From contig NZ_OZ017288.1 of assembly GCF_963967315.1 (NCBI RefSeq), positions 210,001-242,000 of the forward strand: a DNA stretch of 32,000 nucleotides, written 5' to 3'. The notes beneath the pieces were generated by a model. It searched no databases. It was not told the origin of the DNA and saw nothing but the letters and a program-made list of their open reading frames with translations. Positions 2,075 to 21,523 of this stretch are shown here, piece by piece. The first letter of the stretch is position 1. Every line of letters starts with the position of its first letter. Position numbers and translations under genes: made by a program. Origin of the DNA: Candidatus Minimicrobia sp. QA0096. Lineage in GTDB: Bacteria > Patescibacteriota > Saccharimonadia > Saccharimonadales > Saccharimonadaceae.

Positions 2075-2128
2075 CTCTGTTATTTTATCAAAGTTCCTAA
2101 GCGAATAACAAAAGTCGAGAGCCTTCTA

Positions 2129-2344
2129 TTGACTTAATCACCATAGAATGGTATAAGTAATATTGGTTTTCGTTAATGAGTTGAGATTACTCCTCATCCG
2201 AAAACGTTCATTGACAAGCAGCCAAAACACGAGATGAGGTTTTATTTCTTCTAAGAGCTTTAAAGAGATAAAATCTCGTCTTGTGCATAAAGAATGCACG
2301 TATATCACACTGAGGGCGAGAAAACACCAGAAAGGTAAAGGGTC
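2129..2344 (+). promoter_or_regulatory. Cassette A: extended -10 promoter plus a conserved structured 5' leader of about 180 nt (unknown RNA family)
   Basis: TTGACT (2129-2134), 17-nt spacer, then TGgTATAAG. The downstream leader aligns with copies at 2688-2902 and 11015-11225(-). Shared hairpins P1-P3 show compensatory changes (for example P3 GTGCAT/ATGCAC here). Confidence 0.7.
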
Positions 2345-2575
2345 GTGAATAAAAAGACCAATACGACGGCACTGGAGAATTTTCTTCGTCGAGCAACCGC
2401 GTCTGTCGAGGGGAAGAAATTAACCCTCGACTATATCCCGAAAGAAGGTCTGATATCACACACGATCGCCACTGATGTAGAAGTTAGGAAACTTCTCGTC
2501 CAGCTAAGCGAAGAAGCCACTGCGCTGGCGCAAGTAGCACAAAGTCTTCTGGACTACACAGAGACAGAAGATTAA
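2345..2575 (+). CDS. Small acidic hypothetical protein (cassette A cargo, 76 aa, GTG start)
   Basis: ORF lies directly behind the conserved leader with purine-rich AAAGGTAAAGGG upstream. The start sits at the same relative position as the cargo ORFs of cassettes B and C. No recognisable domain. Confidence 0.5.
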   Translation: MNKKTNTTALENFLRRATASVEGKKLTLDYIPKEGLISHTIATDVEVRKLLVQLSEEATALAQVAQSLLDYTETED

Positions 2576-2581
2576 CAACGC

Positions 2582-2637
2582 GGGATATATGATGAGTTGA
2601 TCCACATTCTTTTTTATGGCTGCTTGTCATATATCCC
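2582..2637 (+). other. Cassette A 3' closing hairpin containing the anti-leader segment
   Basis: Arms are GGGATATATGA (2582-2592) and TCATATATCCC (2627-2637). The descending side GGCTGCTTGTCA (2618-2629) is the exact reverse complement of leader segment TGACAAGCAGCC (2212-2223). Confidence 0.65.
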
Positions 2638-2652
2638 CTGAAATAATTTTAG

Positions 2653-2678
2653 AATAGTCTCATTTGAGGCTATTTTTA
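2653..2678 (+). terminator. Rho-independent terminator of cassette A
   Basis: AATAGTCTC-attt-GAGGCTATT (one G.U pair) followed by a T run, immediately before the cassette B promoter. Confidence 0.55.
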
Positions 2679-2687
2679 TATATTCTA

Positions 2688-2902
2688 TTGACTTTTTTAC
2701 ACAAGTGTGGTATATATAATATCAGCTTTCGTTGATGAGTTGAGTAATTCCTTGTCCGAAAGTGAACTTTGACAGGCAATCGAACACAAGATGAGTTTTT
2801 ATTTCTTTTTTAAAACCGCCATAAGAGAGATAAGATCTCATCTTGTATTGTAAAGAACAATACGTCGCAATCCTGCGGATGAGAAAACAGGAAGATAGCA
2901 CA
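2688..2902 (+). promoter_or_regulatory. Cassette B: extended -10 promoter plus the conserved structured 5' leader
   Basis: TTGACT (2688-2693), 17-nt spacer, then TGgTATATA. The leader has P1 GATGAG/CTTGTC, a P2 hairpin of about 25 bp (2786-2846), P3 ATTGT/ACAAT, P4 CGCA/TGCG, and a GGATGAGAAAA block before the SD AGGAAG. Confidence 0.75.
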
Positions 2903-3331
2903 ATGTTTATCGATGTCTCTGACGATCTTTCCGCTACGACGAAAGACCTGAGTTCGAAATGGCACACCGCCATGGAGATCATCTGCAAGGACGAGTATAT
3001 CCCCGTCCTTCAAGTAAGGCGATTCGTCCAAATGATTCGCGACACGTGTCAACGAGTACAAGACCTCCAGGTCTATGCGAACATGTGTCTCGCGCAATCT
3101 CCAGCCATCGTTGTGGGTGTCAACATCTACAACGATGCTGTACGCGTCGCTTCAGCCCTAGAGGAGCTGAAAATCTTCGTTGACAAGCACGTCGCCATGA
3201 CGTACGAAGATGACAAGCAGTTCAAGAATATCTTGAACGAGATCGATGATACTCTTCTGTGCTTGATGTACGCAGGAGAATCCATGCAAAGCCGCGACGA
3301 AGCTGTACTCAGTGATCCCTGGATTGACTGA
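2903..3331 (+). CDS. Hypothetical acidic protein (cassette B cargo, 142 aa)
   Basis: This is the in-frame ATG at 2903 of the tracked ORF 2843..3331. I chose it because AGGAAG lies 8 nt upstream and because 2843-2902 is conserved leader RNA. No recognisable domain. Confidence 0.6.
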   Translation: MFIDVSDDLSATTKDLSSKWHTAMEIICKDEYIPVLQVRRFVQMIRDTCQRVQDLQVYANMCLAQSPAIVVGVNIYNDAVRVASALEELKIFVDKHVAMTYEDDKQFKNILNEIDDTLLCLMYAGESMQSRDEAVLSDPWID

Positions 3332-3340
3332 CAGTATATA

Positions 3341-3388
3341 GTCTACATGACAGGTGATTGTTCTTTTACGATTGCCTGTCATGTAGAC
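3341..3388 (+). other. Cassette B 3' closing hairpin containing the anti-leader segment
   Basis: A perfect 14-bp stem, GTCTACATGACAGG (3341-3354) with CCTGTCATGTAGAC (3375-3388). CGATTGCCTGTCA (3369-3381) is the exact reverse complement of leader TGACAGGCAATCG (2770-2782). Confidence 0.7.
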
Positions 3389-3404
3389 TCTGAATTTACA
3401 ACAT

Positions 3405-3435
3405 TAAAAATCACCCTGAGCATGGGTGATTTTCT
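3405..3435. terminator. Bidirectional terminator between cassette B and tRNA-Leu(CAG)
   Basis: AAAAATCACCC-tgagcat-GGGTGATTTT, with A/T runs on both sides. A near-identical copy lies at 10420-10450. Confidence 0.7.
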
Positions 3436-3458
3436 TATGATGAAAAAATGTCAAATAT

Positions 3459-3545
3459 TGGTGCGGATGAAAGGACTTGAACCTTCACGTACTTGCGTAC
3501 ACTAGCACCTGAAGCTAGCGCGTCTACCAATTCCGCCACATCCGC
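3459..3545 (-). tRNA. tRNA-Leu (anticodon CAG), class II with long variable arm, encoded CCA
   Basis: Manual cloverleaf: acceptor GCGGATG/CATCCGC, anticodon stem CTAGC/GCTAG, loop TTCAGGT, T-loop TTCAAGT; 87 nt. Confidence 0.9.
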
Positions 3546-5282: not shown

Positions 5283-5367
5283 GCGGATGTGGTGGAATTG
5301 GTAGACACGCATGCCTTAGGAGCATGTGCCTCACGGCGTGAAGGTTCAAGTCCTTTCATCCGCACCA
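5283..5367 (+). tRNA. tRNA-Leu (anticodon UAG), encoded CCA
   Basis: Manual cloverleaf: acceptor GCGGATG/CATCCGC, anticodon stem CATGC/GCATG, loop CTTAGGA, long variable arm; 85 nt. Confidence 0.9.
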
Positions 5368-5435
5368 TTTTAGAGTAAAAAACCCAATTGTCGCCCGAAT
5401 GGGCGATTTTTTTGAATTTTTACTCTAAAATGGTG
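5363..5435. repeat. 19-bp perfect inverted repeat that starts inside the tRNA-Leu 3' end and encloses a terminator
   Basis: CACCATTTTAGAGTAAAAA (5363-5381) pairs with TTTTTACTCTAAAATGGTG (5417-5435). The inner hairpin TCGCCC-gaat-GGGCGA plus a T7 run lies at 5391-5413. Confidence 0.8.
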
Positions 5436-5526
5436 AGATTTTACGCCCACGCTAGAACTTAGTTTAATACAAAGTCGCAAATCTGAGTAATCAGATTTGC
5501 TGGGTTTATTATATAATTTAAGTAGT

Positions 5527-6768
5527 ATGCATTATGGTCGATCAAAGAACTATCTATTTTACGCAATCGGATGGCACGAATGGTCAGAGAGTATTATTGT
5601 CGACGCTCGTCAAAAAGCCAGTAATATTGAAAAGAGTGTTTTTGAAGCAAACAGTCAGGAGCGAATAGTTGATCACATCGTGTCTGGCTATAACTTAGCC
5701 CCGCTGGTGCTGTTGGCGGACAACAAAACTCAGGACATAGTAGAGACCAAGGTAGATGTCACCGGCAACAATATGTATGTACAAGCATTTGACAATAGTC
5801 CAATCAGCGTGCCCGGCTATAAGGTCGTTATTACGATACCGTTCACTGGTTCCGCAGACCTATTCAAAGTCACTCCTACTAGAATACGAATGACGTATGA
5901 TGATGCCGTGATTACTGGCAACGAATTGACTTTTGCGTTGGAGTTTACTGAATCAAACACCACTGCGGAGCGGATAAAGGATGCATTAGACGGAAAGATA
6001 GCATCAATACAACAAAACATAGATTATATAAACAGCGACTTATCTGGGTTTGAAGAGCGTGTTAAAGGCGTGGTAACCGAAGCAGTCGCCAAACGTTTTG
6101 AGCAGATAAACAAACTCGACTCGATAAAGACTGCGCTGAATATACCACTTGAAAAATCAAACAATCCTAGCCCATTAAGTCAAGTTAGGATTTCAGTGCA
6201 AAAGCTGACTCCACTCTCAACCAAAAAAGATGAACCTGGTGGAACAATATCAAGCAAAGATTACGAAACGATACTTGAAACCATACGAAGCATGGGTGCA
6301 TCTATGGAAACCAACCGAGCGTCAGAATCAAAGGACGAAGAAGCGCTCCGGGATATGTTGCTGGTCGGCTTGTCTGCGAGCATAAAGAGTGGCGCGGTCG
6401 GCGGCGAGCTATTCCACAAGAGCGGCAAAACAGACATCTCAATACCCTTCAACAATAAAGCGACTTTTGTTGCTGAATGTAAGCTATGGAAAGGTCAGAA
6501 ATATATAGACAGAGGCATAGACCAGCTTTTGGGTTATTTGACTTGGCGCGACGCCAAAACCGCACTCGTTATATTCAATAAAGACAACGCTAACTTCTCT
6601 GATATACAAAGTAAAGTCGAACTCATATTTACTGAACGAAGCGACTACGTGCGCACAATCAAGCAGCGCGATGGTGAGTGGCGCTTTGTTATGACCAAAC
6701 CTGACGATAACGGCCGACAAGTTGAAGTTCACGTCATGCTGTTTGATGTATATGAGACAAAGTCATGA
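5527..6768 (+). CDS. Hypothetical protein with a C-terminal PD-(D/E)xK nuclease-like domain (island 1)
   Basis: The tracked ORF starts at TTG 5497; the ATG at 5527 follows a TATAAT at 5512-5517. The C-terminus reads EEALRDMLLVGL...GKTDISIP...FVAECKLWKG...IDQLLGYL, which fits the D...E-x-K pattern of PDDEXK-type nucleases. The N-terminal 280 aa are unrecognised. Confidence 0.6.
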   Translation: MHYGRSKNYLFYAIGWHEWSESIIVDARQKASNIEKSVFEANSQERIVDHIVSGYNLAPLVLLADNKTQDIVETKVDVTGNNMYVQAFDNSPISVPGYKVVITIPFTGSADLFKVTPTRIRMTYDDAVITGNELTFALEFTESNTTAERIKDALDGKIASIQQNIDYINSDLSGFEERVKGVVTEAVAKRFEQINKLDSIKTALNIPLEKSNNPSPLSQVRISVQKLTPLSTKKDEPGGTISSKDYETILETIRSMGASMETNRASESKDEEALRDMLLVGLSASIKSGAVGGELFHKSGKTDISIPFNNKATFVAECKLWKGQKYIDRGIDQLLGYLTWRDAKTALVIFNKDNANFSDIQSKVELIFTERSDYVRTIKQRDGEWRFVMTKPDDNGRQVEVHVMLFDVYETKS

Positions 6769-6789
6769 TGCGCCACGGAGGATGTACAG

Positions 6790-7668
6790 ATGACCAATAA
6801 AATCACGAAGATAACCAGGTATGCCATCCTAGAAGTTCTGGACACTTACATGGCCATCGACTTTTATGGCAGATTAAACGAAGTAGAGTTCTGGGAGCGC
6901 ATATTCAACCTAGAAAAACTACCATCTACCGACAGCCGTTACCCTGACATGAAGAGCGACCTGTGGCAGCACCGCGTGAATAACGATGATTGGGATGACA
7001 ACTGGTACATTGATAAGTTTGACCTGCTGGAAACAGAAGACGCCAAGTTCCTGAAATTCCTGGCCGAGTTCTTCCATCCGGAAGTTAGAGATATAAATTG
7101 GAACACCAAAAGAGTCTTGGCGACCATCAACAAAAACTTGGCACTTGATGGCGTAGAGTTGTATGCCAAGTCAAAAGTATCAGGCCGCGACATACTGGGT
7201 GCTAGAAATATCACGCCCGCCACACAGATAGATGAAACACCGCTCGCAATTATAGACAACGACTTTATATCGCTACAGATCAACAAAAATGTTTACGACC
7301 ACATCAAACAGTACTTAATCAACGAGGACTACTTCCATGCGGTGGACGAAGCATACAAATTGGTACGCAGCAAACTGCAAGAGATAACTGGCAACGAAAA
7401 AGCCACCGAAGTGTTCAGTATGAATGCCGAGAACAGAAAATACTACATGCAACTGTTTGGCAAATCGGACGGCACAACCCATGCCGAAAAAGATTTCTTC
7501 CGCGGTGTCGGTTACCTGAACCTGACCATACAATTTTTACGCAATGAAAAAGCGCACACACCGGCAGCAGCTCTTGAGCGTAACCTGGCTATTCACTACA
7601 TATCGCTTTCTAGTTTGGCCTATGATTTGATTACTCGCAATGAGACAGAACAAGATGACAAGGTCTGA
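6790..7668 (+). CDS. AbiJ-like protein: AbiJ-NTD-like N-terminus plus a C-terminal HEPN / TIGR02391-type domain
   Basis: GGAGGA RBS, 21 nt after the upstream stop. The C-terminus (DHIKQYL..HAVDEAYK...FLRNEKAH) carries the HEPN R-x4-H motif. The N-terminus (ITKITRYAILEVL...FWERIFNLEKLPSTDSRYP...FLKFLAEFFHPEVRD) resembles AbiJ N-terminal domains. Confidence 0.6.
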   Translation: MTNKITKITRYAILEVLDTYMAIDFYGRLNEVEFWERIFNLEKLPSTDSRYPDMKSDLWQHRVNNDDWDDNWYIDKFDLLETEDAKFLKFLAEFFHPEVRDINWNTKRVLATINKNLALDGVELYAKSKVSGRDILGARNITPATQIDETPLAIIDNDFISLQINKNVYDHIKQYLINEDYFHAVDEAYKLVRSKLQEITGNEKATEVFSMNAENRKYYMQLFGKSDGTTHAEKDFFRGVGYLNLTIQFLRNEKAHTPAAALERNLAIHYISLSSLAYDLITRNETEQDDKV

Positions 7669-7676
7669 TAAAACCC

Positions 7677-8131
7677 CGATGAGCCAGTAACGACAGTCAA
7701 AGAAGATAGGCTGATCGCACTGATTTTGCTAAAGGTCTAGCTGAAGTGCTCGTCAAAGTACCAAACTCTGAGTCATTCACGGTCGGGTTATATGGTGCTT
7801 GAGATAGTGGCAAAACATCCGTGGATAAAATAACCGAAGAATGTCTGACTCAAAAAAACATCCAAACGATATCGAGATTATGGACTTCAGTCCGTGGCTA
7901 TTTACTAGCATAGAAAACCTGCACATAATGTCCTTTGGCACACCAGCACAGGAACTCAGTAAGAAATCAGTAGCCGAGCTAACTGGCACAACCGGGGCGC
8001 CACTATTTGCTCGCATAGCATCTGGAGGTCTATCAGCCTTGAGTGGTAATAAGACCGTAAGTGCCGAAGCGCAATGCGCCTCAAAGTATATGATAGATTG
8101 TAAAATTAAATGCGGCACCTCTAGCAAGTAA
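7677..8131 (+). pseudogene. KAP-family P-loop NTPase pseudogene (N-terminal fragment, stop plus frameshifts)
   Basis: One frame reads DFAKGLAEVLVKVPNSESFTVGLYGA*DSGKTS, placing a TGA stop inside the Walker A motif GxxxxGKT. Homology continues in another frame (IEIMDFSPWLFTSIENL). There is no intact start and the region is truncated downstream. Confidence 0.6.
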
Positions 8132-8192
8132 AAAACTCATACTAACTTCGTGTAAAATGTTAATAACAACAAAAACACACACGGAGGTTAAT

Positions 8193-8517
8193 ATGAGTCA
8201 TAGTTATCTTACCCTAAACGATGGAAATAATATAGAGGTAAGGAATTTGCTTGTTATGAAAAAGTAAAAATGAATTAAACGTAGACTTTTATTTCGCAGA
8301 TCCATATAGCGCTTGGCAAAGAGGGACTAGCGAAAAATAGTAATGGCCTACTTAGAGAATTCTTTCCAAAGAAAACTGATTTAGCTAAAATCAAAAATAA
8401 AGAACTAGTAGATGTTATATATAAAAAAACTCCAGACCGAGAAAATGCCTAGAGTTTGATACGCCATTTGAACGTTTCATGCACGAATTAAATTTGTTAG
8501 GAGAGGTGTCGCAATAA
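8193..8517 (+). mobile_element. IS30-family transposase relic (internally deleted and frameshifted)
   Basis: An N-terminal fragment MSHSYLTLNDGNNIE is followed by C-terminal catalytic-domain pieces spread over three frames: FYFADPYSAWQRGTSE / NSNGLLREFFPKKTDLAKI / NSRPRKCLEFDTPFERF. Confidence 0.65.
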
Positions 8518-8576
8518 TTATTGCAATTCAACATAAAATAAAGAGAGTCTTTAGGGATCCGTAACTCTTATATGCT

Positions 8577-8661
8577 TGGTGTGGATGAAAGAACTTGAAC
8601 CTTCACGCCGTGAGGCACATGTTCCTAAGACATGCGTGTCTACCAATTCCATCACATCCGC
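8577..8661 (-). pseudogene. Degenerate inverted copy of tRNA-Leu(UAG)
   Basis: Full-length 85-nt copy with 5 substitutions relative to 5283-5367. The anticodon-stem change is compensated (CATGT/ACATG). C2.A71 and A10.C25 mismatches arise in the acceptor and D stems. Confidence 0.6.
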
Positions 8662-8737
8662 ATAGTTTGATATTGTGAAATATTTCTGTAAGTAAGTATA
8701 TCGGTAGATAAAATAAATTACCACATTTTTAATATTT

Positions 8738-10030
8738 TTATTTAACAGGAATTTTCTTTGCTAAATCTAATAACAACTCAATCAATTGCGAACTCATAAT
8801 AGGAGCCTCCTCTTTGCTTTTAAATAATCCTTTTGATTTTTTGACTTGATTATTCTCTTCATTATTGAATATTCGGTATGCAACTGTTTTGATAATTTCA
8901 TTTCTTAGTTTTACATCACCTTCAATACTTAGCAGATAAGGCTTTAGTGCTTTAAGTTGATGAGCTGTTCGTTGGTTAGCTCGCTGTGCTTTGCGGTGCT
9001 CGCTTGATTGAGTGGCTGTATATCCTGCTACACCTCCAGCAAATAGCATAACAAATGCTCGAGCTACTAAGGGTTGCCATGACACGGCCTTAGTATTAAT
9101 AACTTCATAAACTACCCAGCAAGAAAATCCTAACATTGCAAGCAGTAAAATTGCTGTTACTACACTCCATATATAAGCAACTATTTTATCTTCCTTAGCA
9201 CTACTAGAATAATCGTGGATTAGTGTTTTATCTCCAGCCATATTCAATAATTCATCTATTCTAGCAAGACTATCTTCTGCCTTCGCCTCAGTAGCGTTTA
9301 GCTTTTTATCTATGTCATCCGTAATGCGATCGGCTTCATTACTCTTTTTGCTAAATGTCTCTTCAATTGTACGTTTCTGCTCTTCAATAAATTTATTAAC
9401 CATCTCATTGCGTACATTTTCAGATTTTGTAAATGATAATTGCTGCTCAGCAGAGATTTTATTTGACGAATCTTTTATGTCTTTTAAATCTTTATTAAGT
9501 TCAGCCACTTTTGCACCAAGTGTTTCAAACTCGTTCTTAGCTTCAGTAACTTTTTCGTCAATGGTCTTTTCTGAGGCGGCTCCTTTAGCGGATATGCTAT
9601 TAATCTCTTTTGCTGCTACACGCTTATATTGACCGACTGACCTATTCAATCCCGCAATAGCTTTGCGAGTTTCTTTTATGTCCATAGCGGGTGTTAATGA
9701 AGGGATGTATGACAATATATTATCGATATATCCATTCATATAAGAAATATCTAGATACGCATCATTACGATAGTTTTGCCAGTTATCAAAGCACGAGCTT
9801 ACACCTGAAAGATAGTTGTTGATATTGTCAAGATTTGATATTGATATTAAGCGGTCGTCTGTATTATTAAGTCTATCTATTAAAAGTTCAATGACTAGTT
9901 TTGCCCGATTAATATCATCGATTGCTTCAAGAGATACATTACCAAGATCTACCTCATCAAATCTGGTTAATAGTTTCTTGGCTGCAGTGTATGTGGCACT
10001 ATTCTGTATACGATCTTCCCATTTACTCAT
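8738..10030 (-). CDS. Coiled-coil protein with two C-proximal transmembrane helices (unknown function)
   Basis: 430-aa ORF in a visibly AT-rich segment. It has its own extended -10 promoter (TGATATAAT on the minus strand, -10 at 10091-10096) and an AAGGA RBS. The N-terminal 270 aa are heptad-like and charged. Hydrophobic segments are IVAYIWSVVTAILLLAMLGFSCWVVY and LVARAFVMLFAGGVAGY. Confidence 0.65.
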   Translation of the reverse strand: MSKWEDRIQNSATYTAAKKLLTRFDEVDLGNVSLEAIDDINRAKLVIELLIDRLNNTDDRLISISNLDNINNYLSGVSSCFDNWQNYRNDAYLDISYMNGYIDNILSYIPSLTPAMDIKETRKAIAGLNRSVGQYKRVAAKEINSISAKGAASEKTIDEKVTEAKNEFETLGAKVAELNKDLKDIKDSSNKISAEQQLSFTKSENVRNEMVNKFIEEQKRTIEETFSKKSNEADRITDDIDKKLNATEAKAEDSLARIDELLNMAGDKTLIHDYSSSAKEDKIVAYIWSVVTAILLLAMLGFSCWVVYEVINTKAVSWQPLVARAFVMLFAGGVAGYTATQSSEHRKAQRANQRTAHQLKALKPYLLSIEGDVKLRNEIIKTVAYRIFNNEENNQVKKSKGLFKSKEEAPIMSSQLIELLLDLAKKIPVK

Positions 10031-10345
10031 GAGGCATTATTCCTTTTTGCTTAGTTGATTCGCTACCCCTTATTAAAAACTTTAAGTACCATTATATCAC
10101 CCTTGTTTTTAAAATTGACCACCTCTAAGAGTAGAGAACTTTACTTATTCAATTTGGCTAATTAAACTCCGCCCCAGACTCCAGAATTGACTCCTTGCGC
10201 CCCGTACAATAACAAACAAAAAACAACGAGCTAGAACTCTTATATCATTTTTGCCTTTATTGCCCATTATTTGCCTGTTGTAAGCCTTTTGTCGGCGGTG
10301 TGCGTAGTTCCTCCGCTAAGTGAAAAGAAAGCTTAATCATCTAGT

Positions 10346-10398
10346 CTTAGGAGCATGTGCCTCACGGCGTGAAGGTTCAAGTCCTTTCATCCGCACCA
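10346..10398 (+). repeat. 53-bp exact direct repeat of the 3' part of tRNA-Leu(UAG), an attR-like island boundary
   Basis: CTTAGGAGCATGTGCCTCACGGCGTGAAGGTTCAAGTCCTTTCATCCGCACCA is identical to 5315-5367. No tRNA 5' half lies upstream. Confidence 0.85.
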
Positions 10399-10419: not shown

Positions 10420-10450
10420 AGAAAATCACCCATAGTTAGGGTGATTTTTA
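10420..10450. terminator. Bidirectional terminator between the tRNA-Leu fragment and cassette C
   Basis: AAAATCACCC-atagtta-GGGTGATTTT. This is homologous to 3405-3435 in inverted orientation. Confidence 0.7.
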
Positions 10451-10472
10451 ATATCATAAATTCACATTTCAA

Positions 10473-10525
10473 AGAAGGGGTTGACAGGCAACCGTAAGTA
10501 GAACGGACACTTATCAACCCTTTCT
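10473..10525 (-). other. Cassette C 3' closing hairpin containing the anti-leader segment
   Basis: Arms at 10473-10484 and 10514-10525 (GGGTTGA/TCAACCC core). The minus-strand CGGTTGCCTGTCA (10482-10494) complements leader TGACAGGCAATCG (11132-11144) with one G.U pair. Confidence 0.6.
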
Positions 10526-10561
10526 CATGGTCACGGCGAGATGCATGGACGTTTTAAATCA

Positions 10562-11014
10562 TCATCCCACGTACGGATAGAGATACTCGTCCTTATACAC
10601 TTCAGACTTGTATTTGTACCCGTATACCATACGGAATATCTGCGCCCAATCGCGCAGATCCCTCAAAGTCTCCGTCTTCTCTTTCGCGGCGTTTCTACAC
10701 TTGCTCCAGAGTTCTGACGTCTCCGGATAAGAACTCCTGTCCTTCCAGTAGTTTCCGCCATTTTTCACGATCCCAAGGAGGGATTCGCTGAATACCTTCT
10801 CGTAGTAGTCAGCGCGGACTTCGGCCTCAAGAGCCTCTTTTTCCGCCTGCTTAACGCAGGGGCGAAGGTAACCTTTCAGCTCCCGAAAACGTGCCATGGT
10901 GGCGCGCAACTCGTCCTCTGCTGCTTCTACATGCCGGAATGGACGAGGATTCTCGCTCGACCCGTAAATAAGCTCAGAGTCAGACTTTCCAAAAATGCGT
11001 CTGAGGATACTCAT
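10562..11014 (-). CDS. Hypothetical protein (cassette C cargo, 150 aa, Tyr/Lys-rich C-terminus)
   Basis: ORF lies directly behind the third copy of the conserved leader. No recognisable domain, and no resemblance to cargos A or B by eye. Confidence 0.6.
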   Translation of the reverse strand: MSILRRIFGKSDSELIYGSSENPRPFRHVEAAEDELRATMARFRELKGYLRPCVKQAEKEALEAEVRADYYEKVFSESLLGIVKNGGNYWKDRSSYPETSELWSKCRNAAKEKTETLRDLRDWAQIFRMVYGYKYKSEVYKDEYLYPYVG

Positions 11015-11225
11015 TGTTCCATCTTTCTTCTCATCCTCACGGGAACGTGATATGTACTATTCTTCAGTACAAGATGAGATTTCATCTCTCTCAACGATTC
11101 TTAAAAAAGAAATAAAACCTCATCTTGTATTCGATTGCCTGTCAAAGTTCACTTTCGGACAAGGATTTACTCAACTTGTCAACGAAAGCTACTTTCATTT
11201 ATACCATACTCGTGCAAAAAGTCAA
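11015..11225 (-). promoter_or_regulatory. Cassette C: extended -10 promoter plus the conserved structured 5' leader
   Basis: On the minus strand: TTGACT (11225-11220), 16-nt spacer, then TGgTATAAA (-10 at 11203-11198). The leader has P1 GACAAG/CTTGTC, a long P2, P3 GTACT/AGTAC, P4 CACG/CGTG and a GAGGATGAGAAGA block. Confidence 0.75.
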
Positions 11226-16874: not shown

Positions 16875-16950
16875 GCGGGTATAGCTCAGTTGTTAGAGCG
16901 CTTCCTTGCCATGGAAGAGGCCAGGAGTTAGAGTCTCCTTACCCGCACCA
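16875..16950 (+). tRNA. tRNA-Gly (anticodon GCC), encoded CCA, with atypical D-loop and T-loop nucleotides
   Basis: Acceptor GCGGGTA/TACCCGC, anticodon stem CTTCC/GGAAG, loop TTGCCAT. The D-loop is AGTTGTTA (U at position 19) and the T-loop is TTAGAGT (A at position 56). Confidence 0.8.
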
Positions 16951-16995
16951 ATTCGATATTTAGCCATCCGAATGGGTGGTTTTTTCGTATTTATA
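16948..16995 (+). repeat. Left copy of a 48-bp direct repeat bounding island 2 (includes the tRNA-Gly CCA end and its terminator)
   Basis: CCAATTcGATATTTAGCCATCCGAAtGGGTGGTTTTTTCGTATTTATA recurs at 21476-21523 with 2 mismatches. It contains the terminator CCATCC-gaat-GGGTGG plus a T6 run. Confidence 0.8.
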
Positions 16996-17016: not shown

Positions 17017-17219
17017 TGCTATAATAAAAGAGTCCAACCAACAATATAACATTTAGGGATTACCTAATATTTTTGGTATTCAAACCAGGAAAAACGGGCA
17101 CTTGCTCGAAAGACATTTGGTTTGAATTCCGATTGTTGGTTGGACGCCTAGAGTAGGTGTCCGTTTTTTTATTACGGACAATAAATACTCACATAATAGC
17201 AACTAACTCAAAGGCGTCC
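17017..17219 (+). promoter_or_regulatory. Extended -10 promoter and a highly structured leader of about 190 nt upstream of the methyltransferase
   Basis: TGcTATAAT at 17017-17025. A perfect 14-bp outer stem (GTCCAACCAACAAT 17032-17045 with ATTGTTGGTTGGAC 17132-17145) encloses hairpin 17053-17067 and the stem ATTCAAACCA/TGGTTTGAAT (17078-17127). A further hairpin TGTCCGT/ACGGACA lies at 17158-17180. Confidence 0.55.
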
Positions 17220-18287
17220 ATGAGTATAGAATCACTAGAAACAAATGTCATAATCCAAGGTGACTGCGTTGAAATACTAAAAACCATACCAGACAAATCA
17301 GTAGATTTAATTTTTGCCGACCCACCCTATAACCTGCAGCTCAAAGGTGACCTGTGGCGACCAAATAACACAAAAGTATCTGCAGTCAGTGATGACTGGG
17401 ACAAATACGACAGTTTTGCAACTTACGACGATTTTACAACCAAATGGCTGACGGAGTGTCGGCGTGTGCTTAAAGACAATGGCACAATTTGGGTCATTGG
17501 AAGTTACCATAATATTTTCCGCGTTGGAAAAATCGTTCAAGACCTCGACTACTGGATTTTTAACGACATTCTTTGGATCAAAACAAACCCTATGCCGAAC
17601 TTCAAGGGCACACGCTTTAATAACTCGCACGAAACACTCATATGGGCGGGTAAGTCCGAAAAGTCAAAGCCGACTTTCAACTACAAAACTATGAAAACAT
17701 ATAACGAAGATAAGCAAATGCGTAGCGATTGGTTTATTCCGATATGTAGCGGACAAGAACGCGTAAAAATTAATGGCGAAAAAGCACACTCGACGCAAAA
17801 ACCACTTGCTTTACTCCGTCGAATTATCAATGCAACATCAAAGCCTGGCGATATTGTGCTTGACCCATTTCTCGGCAGTGGCACAACCGCAGTTGCCGCA
17901 AAAGAACTAGGGCGGCAATATATCGGTATTGAGCGTGACGATACCTATATTAAAGTTGCGAAGCAACGACTCGACAAAACAACACTGCTTGATGAAGCAT
18001 TGGTATCAAGCAAGTTAGAGGCAAAAGCACCGCGCGTCGCCTTTGGCTTGCTGGTTGATATCGGACTTATCAAGAGTGGAACGATACTTACAAGTAAAGA
18101 CGGTAAATACTCGGCGGCAGTTACCGTAAATGGCTCGCTAAAAAGTGGCGACATAGAGGGCTCTATTCATAAGGTCGGTGCAATTCTACAAAACCAACCG
18201 TCATGCAATGGATGGATGTTTTGGTATATGAATAATCTACCAATTGACAATATCCGTCAAAAGTATCTGGAGGAAAATCATGCTTGA
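17220..18287 (+). CDS. Beta-class N6-adenine DNA methyltransferase, CcrM/M.HinfI-like (probable GANTC specificity)
   Basis: Motif IV DLIFADPPYN precedes motif I FLGSGTTAVAAKELGRQYIGIERD. Long stretches are collinear with CcrM as I recall it (VLKDNGTIWVIGSYHNIFRVG, NPMPNFKGTRF, HETLIWA, QMRSDW, KAHSTQKP), and there is a C-terminal extension. I preferred the ATG at 17220 to the tracked GTG at 17157, which lies inside a leader hairpin. Confidence 0.85.
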   Translation: MSIESLETNVIIQGDCVEILKTIPDKSVDLIFADPPYNLQLKGDLWRPNNTKVSAVSDDWDKYDSFATYDDFTTKWLTECRRVLKDNGTIWVIGSYHNIFRVGKIVQDLDYWIFNDILWIKTNPMPNFKGTRFNNSHETLIWAGKSEKSKPTFNYKTMKTYNEDKQMRSDWFIPICSGQERVKINGEKAHSTQKPLALLRRIINATSKPGDIVLDPFLGSGTTAVAAKELGRQYIGIERDDTYIKVAKQRLDKTTLLDEALVSSKLEAKAPRVAFGLLVDIGLIKSGTILTSKDGKYSAAVTVNGSLKSGDIEGSIHKVGAILQNQPSCNGWMFWYMNNLPIDNIRQKYLEENHA

Positions 18288-19513: not shown

Positions 19514-19843
19514 CTAGTAGCTCCTCACTGCACAGTAGTTGAGCGAAAGACTATCACCCTTTGCGCGGTTGTTTTGCCATTGTAGCGGTTGCAAGTTAGT
19601 GATGACATCAGTACCTCCGAGCGATTTAGGTATGATATGGTCAATCTCCCAGCCACATCTACTTGTTGTATCTCCGTAACTCCCCCATTCAATGAGAGCA
19701 CCACACACGTCGGCACGAACGTATGCAGAGTTATAGCCTTGTACTATACGTGCCTTATTCCATACGTCAATTTTTTGTTGTTCTGTATATTGTTTTTTGG
19801 TTAGTACTCGCAAAAGCGGAGTGTATTGATGATTGTATGCCAT
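19514..19843 (-). CDS. Stand-alone HNH endonuclease (109 aa)
   Basis: The HNH core is GWEIDHIIPKSLGGTDVITNLQPLQWQNNRAKGD. A strong RBS (AAGGAGAAAAATC) precedes the ATG. Confidence 0.85.
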   Translation of the reverse strand: MAYNHQYTPLLRVLTKKQYTEQQKIDVWNKARIVQGYNSAYVRADVCGALIEWGSYGDTTSRCGWEIDHIIPKSLGGTDVITNLQPLQWQNNRAKGDSLSLNYCAVRSY

Positions 19844-20152: not shown

Positions 20153-20833
20153 ATGACTCTTGAAAAGAATCTACGCGAACTCCGGGCGATCTACGGACTA
20201 TCACAAGATGATGTGGCGAAAGCGATTGATGTGAGTCGCAGTAGTGTTGTAGCCACCGAAAAAGGCGAGCGTGAACTGAGTAGTGAAGAACTAGGTAAGC
20301 TTGCTGATTTTCTTGGTGTCGATATCATTGATCTTTTATCACAAGAAATCCCAAATTACGAGAAATACCGCGAAATGATAGTGGAAACGCTGCGTCGCTA
20401 TACAGAATACGCAGGCAAAAGCGCAACGAAGACGCTACTCGCAAAACTTATCTACCTTGCAGACTTTGCATGGTATTATGAGCATTTGCAGCCGATGAGT
20501 GGCATGAAGTACCGTCGCTTGCAGTATGGTCCAGTACCCGACCAGTATTTTCGTATTGTTGATGAGCTTATTGATGAAGGTAAGGTATCACTCAAGGTTG
20601 GCGATGAGGCCCAGTGGCTCAATCTCACGCGATCTGCACAAGATACTCCACCTCAGCACCTCTCGACTAGTGAACTTGACTTGATTGATAAAATTGCACA
20701 AAAATGGAAAGATTCAAATACAAAAGAAATCGTACACTTTACACACACACAACTTCCTTGGCAAATCTGTAGGCAAAACGAATATATACCCTACGAGCTA
20801 ATTACCCAGGAAGAGCCGAGCCGTGTTTACTGA
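20153..20833 (+). CDS. XRE-family HTH fused to a DUF4065 (Panacea/SocA-like) antitoxin domain
   Basis: The N-terminus LRELRAIYGLSQDDVAKAIDVSRSSVVATEKGERELSSEEL is an HTH_3-type motif. The C-terminus KLIYLADFAWYYEHLQPMSGMKYRRLQYGPVPDQY is typical of DUF4065. Confidence 0.75.
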   Translation: MTLEKNLRELRAIYGLSQDDVAKAIDVSRSSVVATEKGERELSSEELGKLADFLGVDIIDLLSQEIPNYEKYREMIVETLRRYTEYAGKSATKTLLAKLIYLADFAWYYEHLQPMSGMKYRRLQYGPVPDQYFRIVDELIDEGKVSLKVGDEAQWLNLTRSAQDTPPQHLSTSELDLIDKIAQKWKDSNTKEIVHFTHTQLPWQICRQNEYIPYELITQEEPSRVY

Positions 20834-21475: not shown

Positions 21476-21523
21476 CCAATTAGATATTTAGCCATCCGAA
21501 CGGGTGGTTTTTTCGTATTTATA
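21476..21523 (+). repeat. Right copy of the 48-bp direct repeat bounding island 2
   Basis: CCAATTaGATATTTAGCCATCCGAAcGGGTGGTTTTTTCGTATTTATA, with 2 mismatches relative to 16948-16995. Confidence 0.8.

Follow-up and report, generated by a model that had tools for sequence, protein, structure and literature searches.

[quoted passage not shown]

The hbs mRNA of Bacillus subtilis stands out as a close, experimentally studied counterpart of the element analyzed here; its 5' and 3' untranslated regions (UTRs) form a 14-bp helix that modulates the access of RNase Y to the leader (Braun, Durand, Condon 2017; PMC5737220). The cassettes found in the present window (the whole stretch of DNA that was analyzed, 32 kb in length) resemble hbs in that the mRNA is short, monocistronic, and presumably expressed at a high level, and in that it combines an extensively structured 5' UTR with a 13-14-bp 5'/3'-UTR helix; they also display the hallmark of mRNAs of the hbs and icaR kind, namely complementary 5'/3'-UTR segments that are conserved with covariation. 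However, sequence or structural homology to hbs is absent, and the two occur in different phyla. In addition, the 3' partner in the cassettes also takes part in a competing local hairpin, and the element is common to at least 24 unrelated ORF families.

The hok mRNA is closed by a long-distance 5'-3' helix between its tac and fbi elements, and the availability of alternative partners makes it a conformational switch (PMC9841398). Although the cassettes likewise combine a 5'-3' helix with alternative partners, their ORFs do not encode small membrane toxins, no antisense RNA was found in a consensus promoter scan, and their helix uses an internal linker instead of the extreme 5' end, with no direct sequestration of the Shine-Dalgarno (SD) sequence. 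In Staphylococcus aureus, the icaR 3' UTR is reported to control expression by pairing with the SD region of the 5' UTR, which generates a site for RNase III (PMC3868564). The cassettes share with icaR the pairing of 3' UTR to 5' UTR on the same mRNA and differ from it in that the paired linker lies ~110 nt upstream of their SD. Known examples of conserved, covariation-supported 5'/3'-UTR pairing in bacterial mRNAs comprise only a handful of single-gene cases. Outside bacteria, plus-strand RNA viruses with genome cyclization or kissing between a 3' element and the 5' UTR (flavivirus 5'-3' UAR/CS, plant-virus 3' CITEs) set a long-range 5'-3' helix against a stem-loop local to the 3' end, and function depends on how the linear and closed forms are balanced. 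As eukaryotic viral genomes served by other machinery, these offer an analogy to the cassettes only.

Architecture of the three cassettes in the window

Each cassette is a monocistronic unit of a Saccharibacteria (TM7) chromosome, composed of a strong sigma-70-type promoter, a conserved leader of ~165 nt, an SD sequence, a small orphan ORF, and a 3' hairpin that is distinct from the intrinsic terminator further on. The order of elements within the leader is hairpin P1, a 13-nt single-stranded linker, the long hairpin P2, and the small hairpins P3 and P4. In cassettes A, B, and C alike, the 5' partner of the long-range helix is the linker that separates P1 and P2, while the hairpin located just 3' of the stop codon provides, with its descending arm, the 3' partner. 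The promoters, the transcript ends, and both conformers are putative, as read from the sequence, and the positions of promoter and terminator fit the placement of linker and arm on a single transcript.

Cassette A (plus strand) begins with a promoter at 2129-2157, which consists of a -35 element TTGACT (2129-2134), a 17-nt spacer, and a TGn-extended -10 element TATAAG (2152-2157). This block is kept upstream of all homologous leaders, and it was omitted by the promoter scan because the scan rule requires T at position 6 of the -10 element. From the putative transcription start, P1 (2166-2205; RNAalifold consensus) would lie a few nucleotides from the 5' end. It is followed by the linker UGACAAGCAGCCA (2212-2224), which is unpaired in the leader consensus and pairs with 2617-2629, and by P2 (2228-2285), an A/U-rich hairpin of ~25 bp with compensatory changes. 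A pre-SD heptamer GGCGAGA (2315-2321) is complementary to the P2 3' arm UCUCGUC (2275-2281). The ORF (2345-2575; 76 aa) starts with GTG after GAAAGG (2330-2335) and is an orphan of family F1 that matches no known family. The 3' hairpin (2582-2637) has an 11-bp basal stem (GGGAUAUAUGA/UCAUAUAUCCC) and a weakly paired apical part, and contains the 3' arm UGGCUGCUUGUCA (2617-2629); an intrinsic terminator follows at 2651-2682. In the full-transcript ensemble, the probability of the long-range pair is 0.97.

Cassette B (plus strand) has its promoter at 2688-2716 (-35 TTGACT at 2688-2693, a 17-nt spacer, and -10 TATATA at 2711-2716). P1 (from the leader consensus) occupies 2725-2763, the linker UGACAGGCAAUCG 2770-2782, and P2 2786-2846, which is followed by the small P3 (2847-2861) and P4 (2866-2877) and by the pre-SD heptamer GAUGAGA (2878-2884), complementary to the P2 3' arm UCUCAUC (2837-2843). 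The 142-aa orphan ORF of family F0 (2903-3331) starts with ATG after AGGAAG (2889-2894). Its 3' hairpin (3340-3389; 21-22 bp including G.U pairs) begins 9 nt past the stop codon and carries the 3' arm CGAUUGCCUGUCA (3369-3381). At 3406-3436 lies a terminator that cassette B shares with tRNA-Leu(CAG), whose gene runs towards it on the minus strand (3459-3545).

Cassette C lies on the minus strand, with its promoter at 11198-11225 (-35 TTGACT at 11225-11220 and -10 TATAAA at 11203-11198). P1 (11151-11189; leader consensus), the linker UGACAGGCAAUCG (11132-11144), P2 (11068-11129), P3 (11045-11061), P4 (11028-11039), and the pre-SD heptamer GAUGAGA (11019-11025) precede a 150-aa orphan ORF (10562-11014), labelled family 6 and also F4. 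The 3' hairpin (10472-10526) contains the 3' arm CGGUUGCCUGUCA (10482-10494), which forms one U.G pair with the linker, and the full-transcript ensemble gives the long-range pair a probability of 0.885. The terminator past this cassette (10421-10449) adjoins a partial tRNA-Leu 3' half (10346-10398).

An earlier note on this DNA had described three inverted repeats at these positions, and their coordinates hold. It had given the repeat of cassette A a length of 12 nt: TGACAAGCAGCC (2212-2223) is complementary to GGCTGCTTGTCA (2618-2629), and the helix in full measures 13 bp (2212-2224 with 2617-2629). In cassette B, TGACAGGCAATCG (2770-2782) and CGATTGCCTGTCA (3369-3381) form a perfect 13-bp helix, and in cassette C, for which one G.U pair had been reported, 11132-11144 and 10482-10494 form 13 bp with one U.G. 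The identification of the downstream partner as the descending arm of a local 3' hairpin applies to all three cassettes, but the stem of 14 bp ascribed to the cassette B hairpin falls well short of the length measured. The long-range pairing and the local hairpin had been called mutually exclusive, which is only partly correct. Because the arm covers only the apical part of the 3' hairpin, with most of the basal 8-11 bp beyond it, exclusivity is limited to the apical stem, and the RNA may form a pseudoknot in which the basal clamp of the hairpin persists.

Taken alone, a 12-nt inverted repeat is no rarity over 32 kb. Seven distinct perfect 12-mer inverted repeats spaced 150-1000 nt apart are present in the window (11 k-mer pairs, compared with ~2.6 k-mer pairs expected from Markov simulations). 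The significance of the three repeats discussed here comes from their equivalent positions in three homologous cassettes and from their conservation elsewhere. No further copy of either 13-mer occurs within the 32-kb window.

Homologous cassettes and the two competing pairings

Pattern scans of genomes and metagenomes yielded 214 homologous leaders, all from Saccharibacteria (Nanosynbacter and relatives). The linker/3'-arm helix, counted as retained if the linker partner scores ≥20, is preserved in 149 of the 155 distinct cassettes, as opposed to 1/155 with shuffled linkers and 3/155 with reversed ones. In an alignment of 44 sequences, 99.1% of the cells are paired and both sides have changed at 6 of the 13 pairs, while slid controls of the same alignment reach 25-52%. 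At least six covarying linker types exist, with linker/arm combinations that include GGCAAUCG/CGAUUGCC, AGCAGCCA/UGGCUGCU, AACAGCUA/UAGCUGUU, GACAGU/ACUGUC, AGCAGAUG/CAUCUGCU, and AGCAGCCU/AGGCUGCU. Covariation of leader and 3' arm across homologous cassettes, which the earlier note had proposed to test, is present, and the claim of that note that the pairing is under selection is correct. Since the homologs represent one narrow clade, the covariation derives from some six types at the level of lineages, together with isolated point changes, and not from a large number of independent events. The linker and arm are mismatched in a few hybrid cassettes (L004 and L014), in which the linker of one type is joined to the arm of another, so a cassette does not need the pairing in order to persist in a genome.

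The RNAalifold consensus of 64 leaders contains P1 (columns 6-46) and P2 (columns 76-142), both with compensatory changes, and leaves the linker unpaired; across leaders, changes in the P2 3' arm are matched by changes in the pre-SD heptamer. The base of the 3' hairpin lies a median of 6 nt past the stop codon (≤12 nt in 73% of cassettes). As the ORFs enclosed by the helix fall into at least 24 families that are unrelated by BLAST, the helix belongs to the expression unit and not to one gene.

The way in which the helix deviates from Watson-Crick pairing carries a signature of the sense strand. G.U pairs make up 25 of the 30 non-Watson-Crick cells of the long-range helix in the first 69 cassettes, and our own count from the table of the larger cassette set gives ~14 distinct G.U events, 2 A.C, and 2 transversions. 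The local 3' hairpin contains 301 G.U cells compared with 44 A.C, and ten of its stem positions switch only between Watson-Crick and G.U. The descending arm binds the distant linker better than its own ascending arm in 121 of 122 cassettes, with mean duplex energies of -21.4 kcal/mol for arm:linker and -13.2 for the arm with its own ascending region; the pairing with the ascending arm is weakened by G.U and mismatches, whereas that with the linker is all Watson-Crick. Comparison of the homologs demonstrates two alternative partners for the descending arm on the sense mRNA (its own ascending arm and the distant 5' linker), an arm tuned to the linker, and the retention of both pairings, local and long-range, by selection. 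Within the window, the two states are close in energy, with differences (long-range minus local) of -6.7 kcal/mol for A, +9.5 for B, and -1.3 for C. In B-type cassettes, the thermodynamics of nested structures strongly favor the local hairpin, and the long-range pairing would therefore require a pseudoknot or an active opener.

The cassettes sit between tRNA genes and an FAD-oxidase gene at the loci checked for tRNAs. Their ORFs encode 50-220 aa (most 63-220 aa), and the inspected products are mostly hydrophilic, although the singleton families F21 and F23 look hydrophobic. No functional match was obtained for the cassette ORFs in Pfam, NCBIfam, PHROGs, or PADLOC, and homolog searches with the cassette B ORF recovered only a tiny clade-restricted family. 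The product of this ORF is predicted to be a four-helix bundle, and its AlphaFold model is of a generic kind that has no significant PDB match. A common superfamily was rejected after profile-profile comparison gave a single weak link between families (F0-F2, probability 30%), and so was a viral origin, as the P1 pattern was unmatched in viral contigs and the cassette ORFs lack PHROG matches.

Several known RNA classes were also considered as identities for the leader. Only tRNAs reach the gathering score of Rfam (release 15) in the window, and in E-value mode the best matches in 2100-3450 are a plant miRNA model and, on the opposite strand, RAGATH-10, at 24 bits versus thresholds of 100 and 41. 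The RAGATH-10 match (minus strand, 2185-2243; 24 bits against 41.2) involves the A type only and was treated as chance. A hammerhead ribozyme was suggested by the core-like GAUGAG...CGAAA in P1, but GAUGAG is a covarying stem arm (also GACAAG, AAUGAG) and Rfam reports no such ribozyme. An antiterminator chain was prompted by the likeness of the B-type ascending arm GGUGAUUG to the terminator 3' arm and was abandoned, as the pairing is lost in variant ascending arms (GGCAAUUG and others) and in the A and C types. The short Phe-rich frame within P2 of B and C types (MSFYFFF...) has no SD, the start codon is missing in many A-type leaders (GGCGAG), and this frame is probably not coding. A riboswitch or T-box leader has no Rfam match, and at least 24 unrelated orphan ORFs downstream imply no metabolic logic. 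Searches of the literature turned up no relevant account of such a leader or cassette in Saccharibacteria.

Explanations at the DNA and RNA levels

Invertible promoters and shufflons (such as fimS and Bacteroides invertons) carry short inverted repeats that flank a regulatory or coding segment. The earlier note had left open whether the 13-nt pair likewise delimits a phase-variable segment, in which the stretch with P2, P3, ribosome-binding site, and ORF would be inverted (by a recombinase) while the promoter and P1 stay fixed. Perfect 12-13-nt inverted repeats do enclose the ORF, and the 13-8-13 layout of the B-type 3' hairpin is superficially like lox/FRT-type sites. However, a check for both orientations in assemblies and contigs recovered only the forward one: none of 211 scorable leaders is flipped, P2 lies directly 3' of the linker in all, and three leaders that failed the regular expression are divergent forward-oriented variants. 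Moreover, exact matches to the predicted flipped junction are absent from metagenome contigs and from loci L001-L065 (the first 65), no recombinase family was matched by the larger window ORFs in Pfam scans, the leader carries only a half-site, and a DNA site gives no reason for the strong G.U bias of deviations on the sense strand. Inversion is therefore extremely improbable and already largely refuted. Integron cassettes (attC) and T4 promoter-early-stem-loop modules hold unrelated small ORFs within conserved structured flanks at a variable locus, and the flanks described here might similarly act as recombination signals for cassette exchange (in the style of integron attC, a dif module, or the T4 promoter-stem-loop), with complementarity as a by-product. 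Such a role, which is unlikely, would account for the precise swapping of unrelated ORFs between conserved leader and 3' hairpin at one tRNA-flanked hotspot, for the hybrids L004 and L014 that combine linker and arm of different types, and for the correlation of ORF family groups with linker type. Nevertheless, homologous recombination of the conserved flanks would explain the swapping with no need for linker/arm complementarity, and exchange leaves the G.U bias and the arm-to-linker tuning unexplained. Unlike integron cassettes, in which a promoterless ORF with attC forms part of an array beside intI/attI/Pc, every cassette brings along a promoter and a 165-nt leader; Pfam matched none of the larger window ORFs to an integrase, Xer-like, or HUH-type family, and the leader-to-hairpin complementarity has no counterpart in integron or T4 modules. 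Cassette exchange can also coexist with an RNA explanation instead of replacing it. The complementarity could finally be a now functionless relic of an inverted duplication of the P1-linker region at the origin of the cassette, given that P1 is like a miniature 3' hairpin (GAYRAG...CUUGUC versus GACAGG...CCUGUC). This is hardly credible, as a relic would be expected to decay, whereas 99% of the helix is still paired among types with differences at 6 of 13 positions, and gene conversion cannot maintain a stretch as short as 13 nt.

At the RNA level, the linker and the ascending arm could represent two copies of a binding motif (UGACAGG...) for a trans-acting protein or small RNA, one of which is masked by the descending arm, with no helix in cis. 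The two are indeed direct, degenerate copies, a short UGAAC/UGAAA motif recurs 5' of the linker and 3' of the hairpin, and one linker type dominates the cassettes of a genome, which makes trans pairing between cassette mRNAs equally possible. A trans factor is nonetheless unlikely, since a change in the linker is matched by the descending arm and not by the ascending arm, which remains degenerate (a pattern that marks pairing between linker and arm and not a shared motif), and the absence of other 13-mer copies from the window also counts against it. An mRNA of a hok/sok-like type I toxin-antitoxin system, kept inert by the folding of its 3' end onto its 5' end until 3' processing, would share with the cassettes the three-element logic of tac/fbi/ucb in hok, in which one strand has two partners and the 5' and 3' ends are closed (PMC9841398), and a fold-back helix with alternative partners is found in the cassettes. 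In contrast to the small hydrophobic toxin ORFs (<~60 aa) of such systems, the cassette ORFs encode 50-220 aa in 24 families, are mostly hydrophilic where inspected, and in the modelled case of B yield a helical bundle. No toxin match was found in PADLOC or Pfam, the long-range helix involves neither the SD nor the extreme 5' end, and the consensus promoter scan, itself weak evidence, detected no antisense promoter or antitoxin RNA opposite the leader; a toxin mRNA of this type is thus very improbable.

A putative closed-loop switch and its significance

The RNA-level 5'-3' interaction or switch, which was the other explanation offered in the earlier note, is favored by the covarying linker types, the G.U-biased deviations, and the Watson-Crick/G.U variation of the local hairpin. 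Comparative evidence argues that the conserved pairing is a selected RNA contact between mRNA ends, not a DNA inversion switch, and with good confidence it can be regarded as a 5'UTR-3'UTR switch that acts in cis on monocistronic mRNAs and has no earlier description. The mRNA would toggle between two forms, open and closed-loop, and in the latter the 5' linker would be sequestered in the 13-bp helix beside P1 and P2, maybe as a pseudoknot that retains the basal clamp of the 3' hairpin. By analogy with the hbs helix, the switch probably controls mRNA decay and/or translation: loop closure would hide the single-stranded linker from endonucleases and tie both mRNA ends together, and ribosomes terminating a few nucleotides upstream may loosen the local hairpin and thereby favor closure. 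Because the long-range helix makes no contact with the SD, an effect on translation would be indirect, and whether closure stabilizes or represses is a guess. The leader's second three-element module (P2 5' arm, P2 3' arm, and pre-SD heptamer) suggests that the leader itself may also switch.

In a broader reading, which has about an even chance of being correct, the cassette would represent a modular mRNA chassis new to the literature, in which the covarying 13-bp helix (possibly pseudoknotted) and the P2-3'-arm/pre-SD switch form a translation-coupled closed loop. The hotspot between tRNA genes would then be the place where this chassis expresses a rapidly changing set of orphan helical-bundle proteins, and it may serve to diversify them for conflict or for interaction with the host.

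The reuse of one architecture for at least 24 unrelated genes in ~150 cassettes provides unusually strong comparative evidence for a closed-loop mRNA in bacteria. In Saccharibacteria, which are ultrasmall episymbionts, gene regulation has hardly been explored, and the tools for their genetic manipulation are recent. With its strong promoter, defined leader, and defined 3' partner, the cassette is a ready experimental object and could serve as an expression module. Furthermore, as the ORFs are orphan, fast-evolving, and clustered at one hotspot, the element marks a locus that is likely important for strain-specific biology.

Cassette layout and the linker-arm helix

Cassettes A and B (plus strand) and C (minus strand) are small-ORF units whose layout was derived by aligning these three and, separately, 64 homologous leaders. 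Each opens with a promoter-like block (TTGACT, 17 nt and a TGn-extended TATAAA or TATAAG), and the hairpin P1 lies a few nucleotides downstream of the inferred transcription start. P1 is followed by a 6-8-nt spacer and a 13-nt linker that is unpaired in the consensus fold of the 64 leaders. Directly 3' of the linker stands the 25-bp hairpin P2 and, after the small P3 and P4 hairpins, a conserved heptamer of the GAUGAGA type leads on to the Shine-Dalgarno site and the ORF. Compensatory changes support P1 and P2, with both sides changing in 14 of 38 predicted pairs across the 64 leaders. Beyond the stop codon, a further hairpin carries a descending arm (the arm) complementary to the linker, and the cassette ends in a conserved YUGAA(A/U)U motif and then a separate intrinsic terminator. 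No Rfam family matches; one sub-threshold hit, to RAGATH-10 (2185-2243, minus strand; 24 bits with a gathering score of 41.2, E 0.08), lies on the other strand from P1 and the linker in cassette A alone and was treated as chance.

YUGAA(A/U)U occurs at 2638-2644, 3390-3396 and 10466-10472 (minus strand) and lies 3' of every 3' hairpin, the most divergent cassettes included, while a similar UGAACUU stands 5' of the B-type linker (2763-2769); both could be nuclease or protein sites. The 3' arm of B-type P1 (CUUGUC) has an alternative partner in the first half of the linker, GACAGG (2750-2775), which replaces the G.U-rich P1 5' arm. This alternative is used by the full-length minimum free energy fold of cassette B and is not conserved in the A type.

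The earlier note had proposed that an inverted repeat joins leader and 3' hairpin in each unit, and all three lie where it placed them: 2212-2223 with 2618-2629 in A (extendable to 13 bp, 2212-2224 with 2617-2629), a perfect 13 at 2770-2782 with 3369-3381 in B, and 13 bp with one U.G at 11132-11144 with 10482-10494 (minus strand) in C. A single perfect 12-nt inverted repeat is unremarkable alone; the window holds seven distinct examples at 150-1000-nt spacing, and Markov simulations give about 2.6 k-mer pairs. What is notable is their equivalent position in three homologous units.

A leader DNA pattern matched 65 genome loci, 57 of them in Saccharibacteria (Candidatus Nanosynbacter, TM7 oral taxa and Candidatus Minimicrobia); the remaining eight, from unrelated phyla, look like random matches. 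The first genome scan used the P1 sequence alone and so imposed no selection on the linker. TTGACA stood within 20 nt in 72/72 Saccharibacteria-type matches, and nearly all of those with a long enough 3' flank showed a complement of 11-14 bp lying 220-832 nt downstream, in each instance the descending arm of a local hairpin. A further 120 loci came from a metagenome scan, and over all sources the leaders number 214; both scans needed the P1 sequence, and the second TTGACA too. Of the distinct cassettes, 155 have 1,080 nt or more of downstream sequence, and among these the partner score was at least 20 in 149 and at least 24 in 144; shuffled linkers reached 20 in 1/155 and reversed linkers in 3/155, and neither reached 24. 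The refutation named in the earlier note, homologous cassettes without the complementarity, thus did not come about; what had been noticed in three window pairs is borne out and considerably extended.

An alignment of linker and 3' element from 44 sequences has 99.1% of its cells paired and both partners altered at 6 of 13 pairs, and its covariation score exceeds that of 500 of 500 shuffles; sliding the partner by 1-3 columns lowers pairing to 25-52%. Matched linker/arm types include GGCAAUCG/CGAUUGCC, AGCAGCCA/UGGCUGCU, AACAGCUA/UAGCUGUU, GACAGU/ACUGUC, AGCAGAUG/CAUCUGCU and AGCAGCCU/AGGCUGCU. Independent covariation events are limited in number, since the homologues all belong to a single narrow clade. 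Exceptions are rare and are hybrids that join the linker of one type to the arm of another, namely two homologous loci, L004 (4336-5000, plus strand; A-type linker, B-type 3' arm, truncated ORF) and L014 (7200-7751, minus strand; B-type linker, A-type arm), and two others. L004 and L014 indicate that cassette types recombine and that pairing can be lost.

RNA interaction or invertible DNA, and the competing hairpin

Two readings of the repeats had been put forward, an interaction or switch between the RNA ends and the boundaries of an invertible DNA segment. A Watson-Crick pair that undergoes a transition is a priori as likely to become G.U as A.C. G.U makes up 25 of 30 non-canonical helix cells in the first data set, where four of the remaining five fall past the end of shorter helices, and the larger set holds about 14 distinct G.U, 2 A.C and 2 transversion mismatches by table count rather than phylogenetic reconstruction. 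B- and C-type cassettes have 301 G.U cells versus 44 A.C in their local 3' hairpin, and ten stem positions vary solely by exchange of Watson-Crick for G.U pairs or the reverse. This asymmetry marks the sense-strand RNA as the selected entity and supports the interaction between RNA ends. Inversion would leave P1 and the linker outside the flipped segment, so that P1-based scans were able to catch flipped copies; P2 nevertheless lies directly 3' of the linker in 211/211 scorable leaders, and the three leaders that failed the regular expression are divergent forward-oriented variants. Neither the metagenome collection nor the first 65 loci (L001-L065) contained a match to the flipped junction, and no recombinase family matched among the larger window ORFs scanned. 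Wobble bias, orientation and the lack of a recombinase match in that scan together make inversion very unlikely.

The RNA interaction would compete with the local hairpin, which is present in every cassette, even the most divergent (loci L002 and L010). On equal bimolecular footing, the linker is the stronger partner of the 13-nt arm in 121/122 distinct cassettes, with a mean of -21.4 kcal/mol versus -13.2 for the arm's own ascending region. Furthermore, linker changes are matched by changes in the descending arm, and the ascending arm stays a degenerate G.U-rich copy; the arm is thus tuned to the linker. Much of the hairpin's stability comes from an 8-11-bp basal stem largely outside the arm, so the long-range helix could form as a pseudoknot with this clamp retained. 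In full-transcript ensembles, limited to nested structures and with energies that ignore pseudoknots and cotranscriptional folding, long-range minus local ddG is -6.7 kcal/mol in cassette A (long-range pair probability 0.97), -1.3 in C (0.885) and +9.5 in B (about 0). The two states are predicted to be near enough in energy for switch behaviour. Comparison across cassettes shows that selection on the sense RNA keeps both the linker-arm helix and a weaker local hairpin sharing the arm.

A second leader module, the encoded proteins and their setting

Across leaders, covariation links the base of the P2 3' arm to the heptamer directly 5' of the Shine-Dalgarno site. Heptamer variants are GAUGAGA, GGCGAGA, GACGAGA, GGUGAGA and GGUGAGG, those of the arm base are UCUCAUC, UCUCGUC, UCUCACC and CCUCAUC, and the pairs comprise GAUGAGA/UCUCAUC, GGCGAGA/UCUCGUC, GGUGAGA/UCUCACC and GGUGAGG/CCUCAUC. 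Heptamer and arm lie at 2315-2321 and 2275-2281 in A, 2878-2884 and 2837-2843 in B, and 11019-11025 and 11072-11078 (minus strand) in C. Often the P2 3' arm is matched better by the heptamer than by the P2 5' arm, and this second module of one strand with two partners is possibly a second switch. P2 also contains a short Phe-rich reading frame (2791-2853 in B, MSFYFFFKTAIREIRSHLVL, with an equivalent in C; MRFYFF... in A and C) that resembles the leader peptides of Phe attenuators. A leader peptide was rejected, as the frame lacks a Shine-Dalgarno site and GCG replaces ATG in many A-type leaders elsewhere; the U-rich arm probably creates it as a side effect.

The 154 distinct cassette products (among them those of window ORFs 2345-2575, 2903-3331 and 10562-11014) form 24 BLAST-unrelated families of 50-220 aa, with profile-profile comparison adding one weak link between two of them; no ORF family matched Pfam, NCBIfam, PHROGs or PADLOC. 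Close homologues of the ORF B family number 57, and 1.84 billion clusters contain only 8 representatives of it; AlphaFold (pLDDT 80) models the protein as a four-helix bundle, for which the PDB gave no significant match. These orphan families, at least 24 in all, are confined to one clade and concentrated at one tRNA-flanked locus, and those inspected are mostly helical and acidic. ORF swaps are exact from the Shine-Dalgarno site to the hairpin base, the stop codon lies a median of 6 nt from the hairpin start (at most 12 nt in 73% of cassettes), and groups of ORF families correlate with linker type. The element is part of an expression chassis, not of any single gene, and the locus is a gene-turnover hotspot.

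The 32-kb window is bacterial chromosome with HisRS, SpoU methylase, TypA, RarA, RecG and TyrRS genes and seven tRNA genes; at tRNA-checked loci, cassettes lie between SpoU, tRNA-Leu(CAG), an FAD-linked oxidase gene, tRNA-Leu(UAG) and tRNA-Val. An approximately 5-kb insertion (5368-10345) at the tRNA-Leu(UAG) 3' end lies between two identical 53-nt direct copies of the tRNA 3' half (5315-5367, 10346-10398). It contains a PDC-S54 candidate defence gene (5497-6768, E 7e-105), an AbiJ-NTD3/Hypoth_Ymh protein (6790-7668), an extra inverted tRNA-Leu(UAG) copy (8577-8661) and a 430-aa coiled-coil/membrane protein (8738-10030), and no integrase was seen. The insertion is absent from related genomes, and cassette C therefore normally adjoins tRNA-Leu(UAG) directly. 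Additionally, a 96% identical 48-nt direct repeat (16948-16995, 21476-21523) of the tRNA-Gly(GCC) end and terminator encloses about 4.5 kb that looks like a second tRNA-associated island, with an N6/N4 DNA methylase bearing a RAMA domain (17157-18287), an HNH endonuclease (19514-19843) and an HTH-Panacea (SocA-like) antitoxin-type protein (20153-20833).

Proposed mechanism and related systems

The mRNA would alternate between an open and a closed-loop form, with control of decay and/or translation as the preferred function. Loop closure would bury the leader's only long single-stranded stretch and dock the 3' end beside P1 and P2; speculatively, a ribosome terminating so near the hairpin base could favour partner exchange. 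[quoted passage not shown] The hok tac/fbi fold-back (PMC9841398) shares the principle, but its toxin ORF is not matched in the cassettes, and a scan for an antisense RNA showed no consensus promoter opposite the leader; likewise icaR (PMC3868564) shares the principle, but its Shine-Dalgarno pairing is not matched. On comparative grounds, the cassette helix is a cis-acting 5'-3' mRNA element specific to Saccharibacteria: the kind of regulation it probably exerts is known, and this element was previously undescribed.
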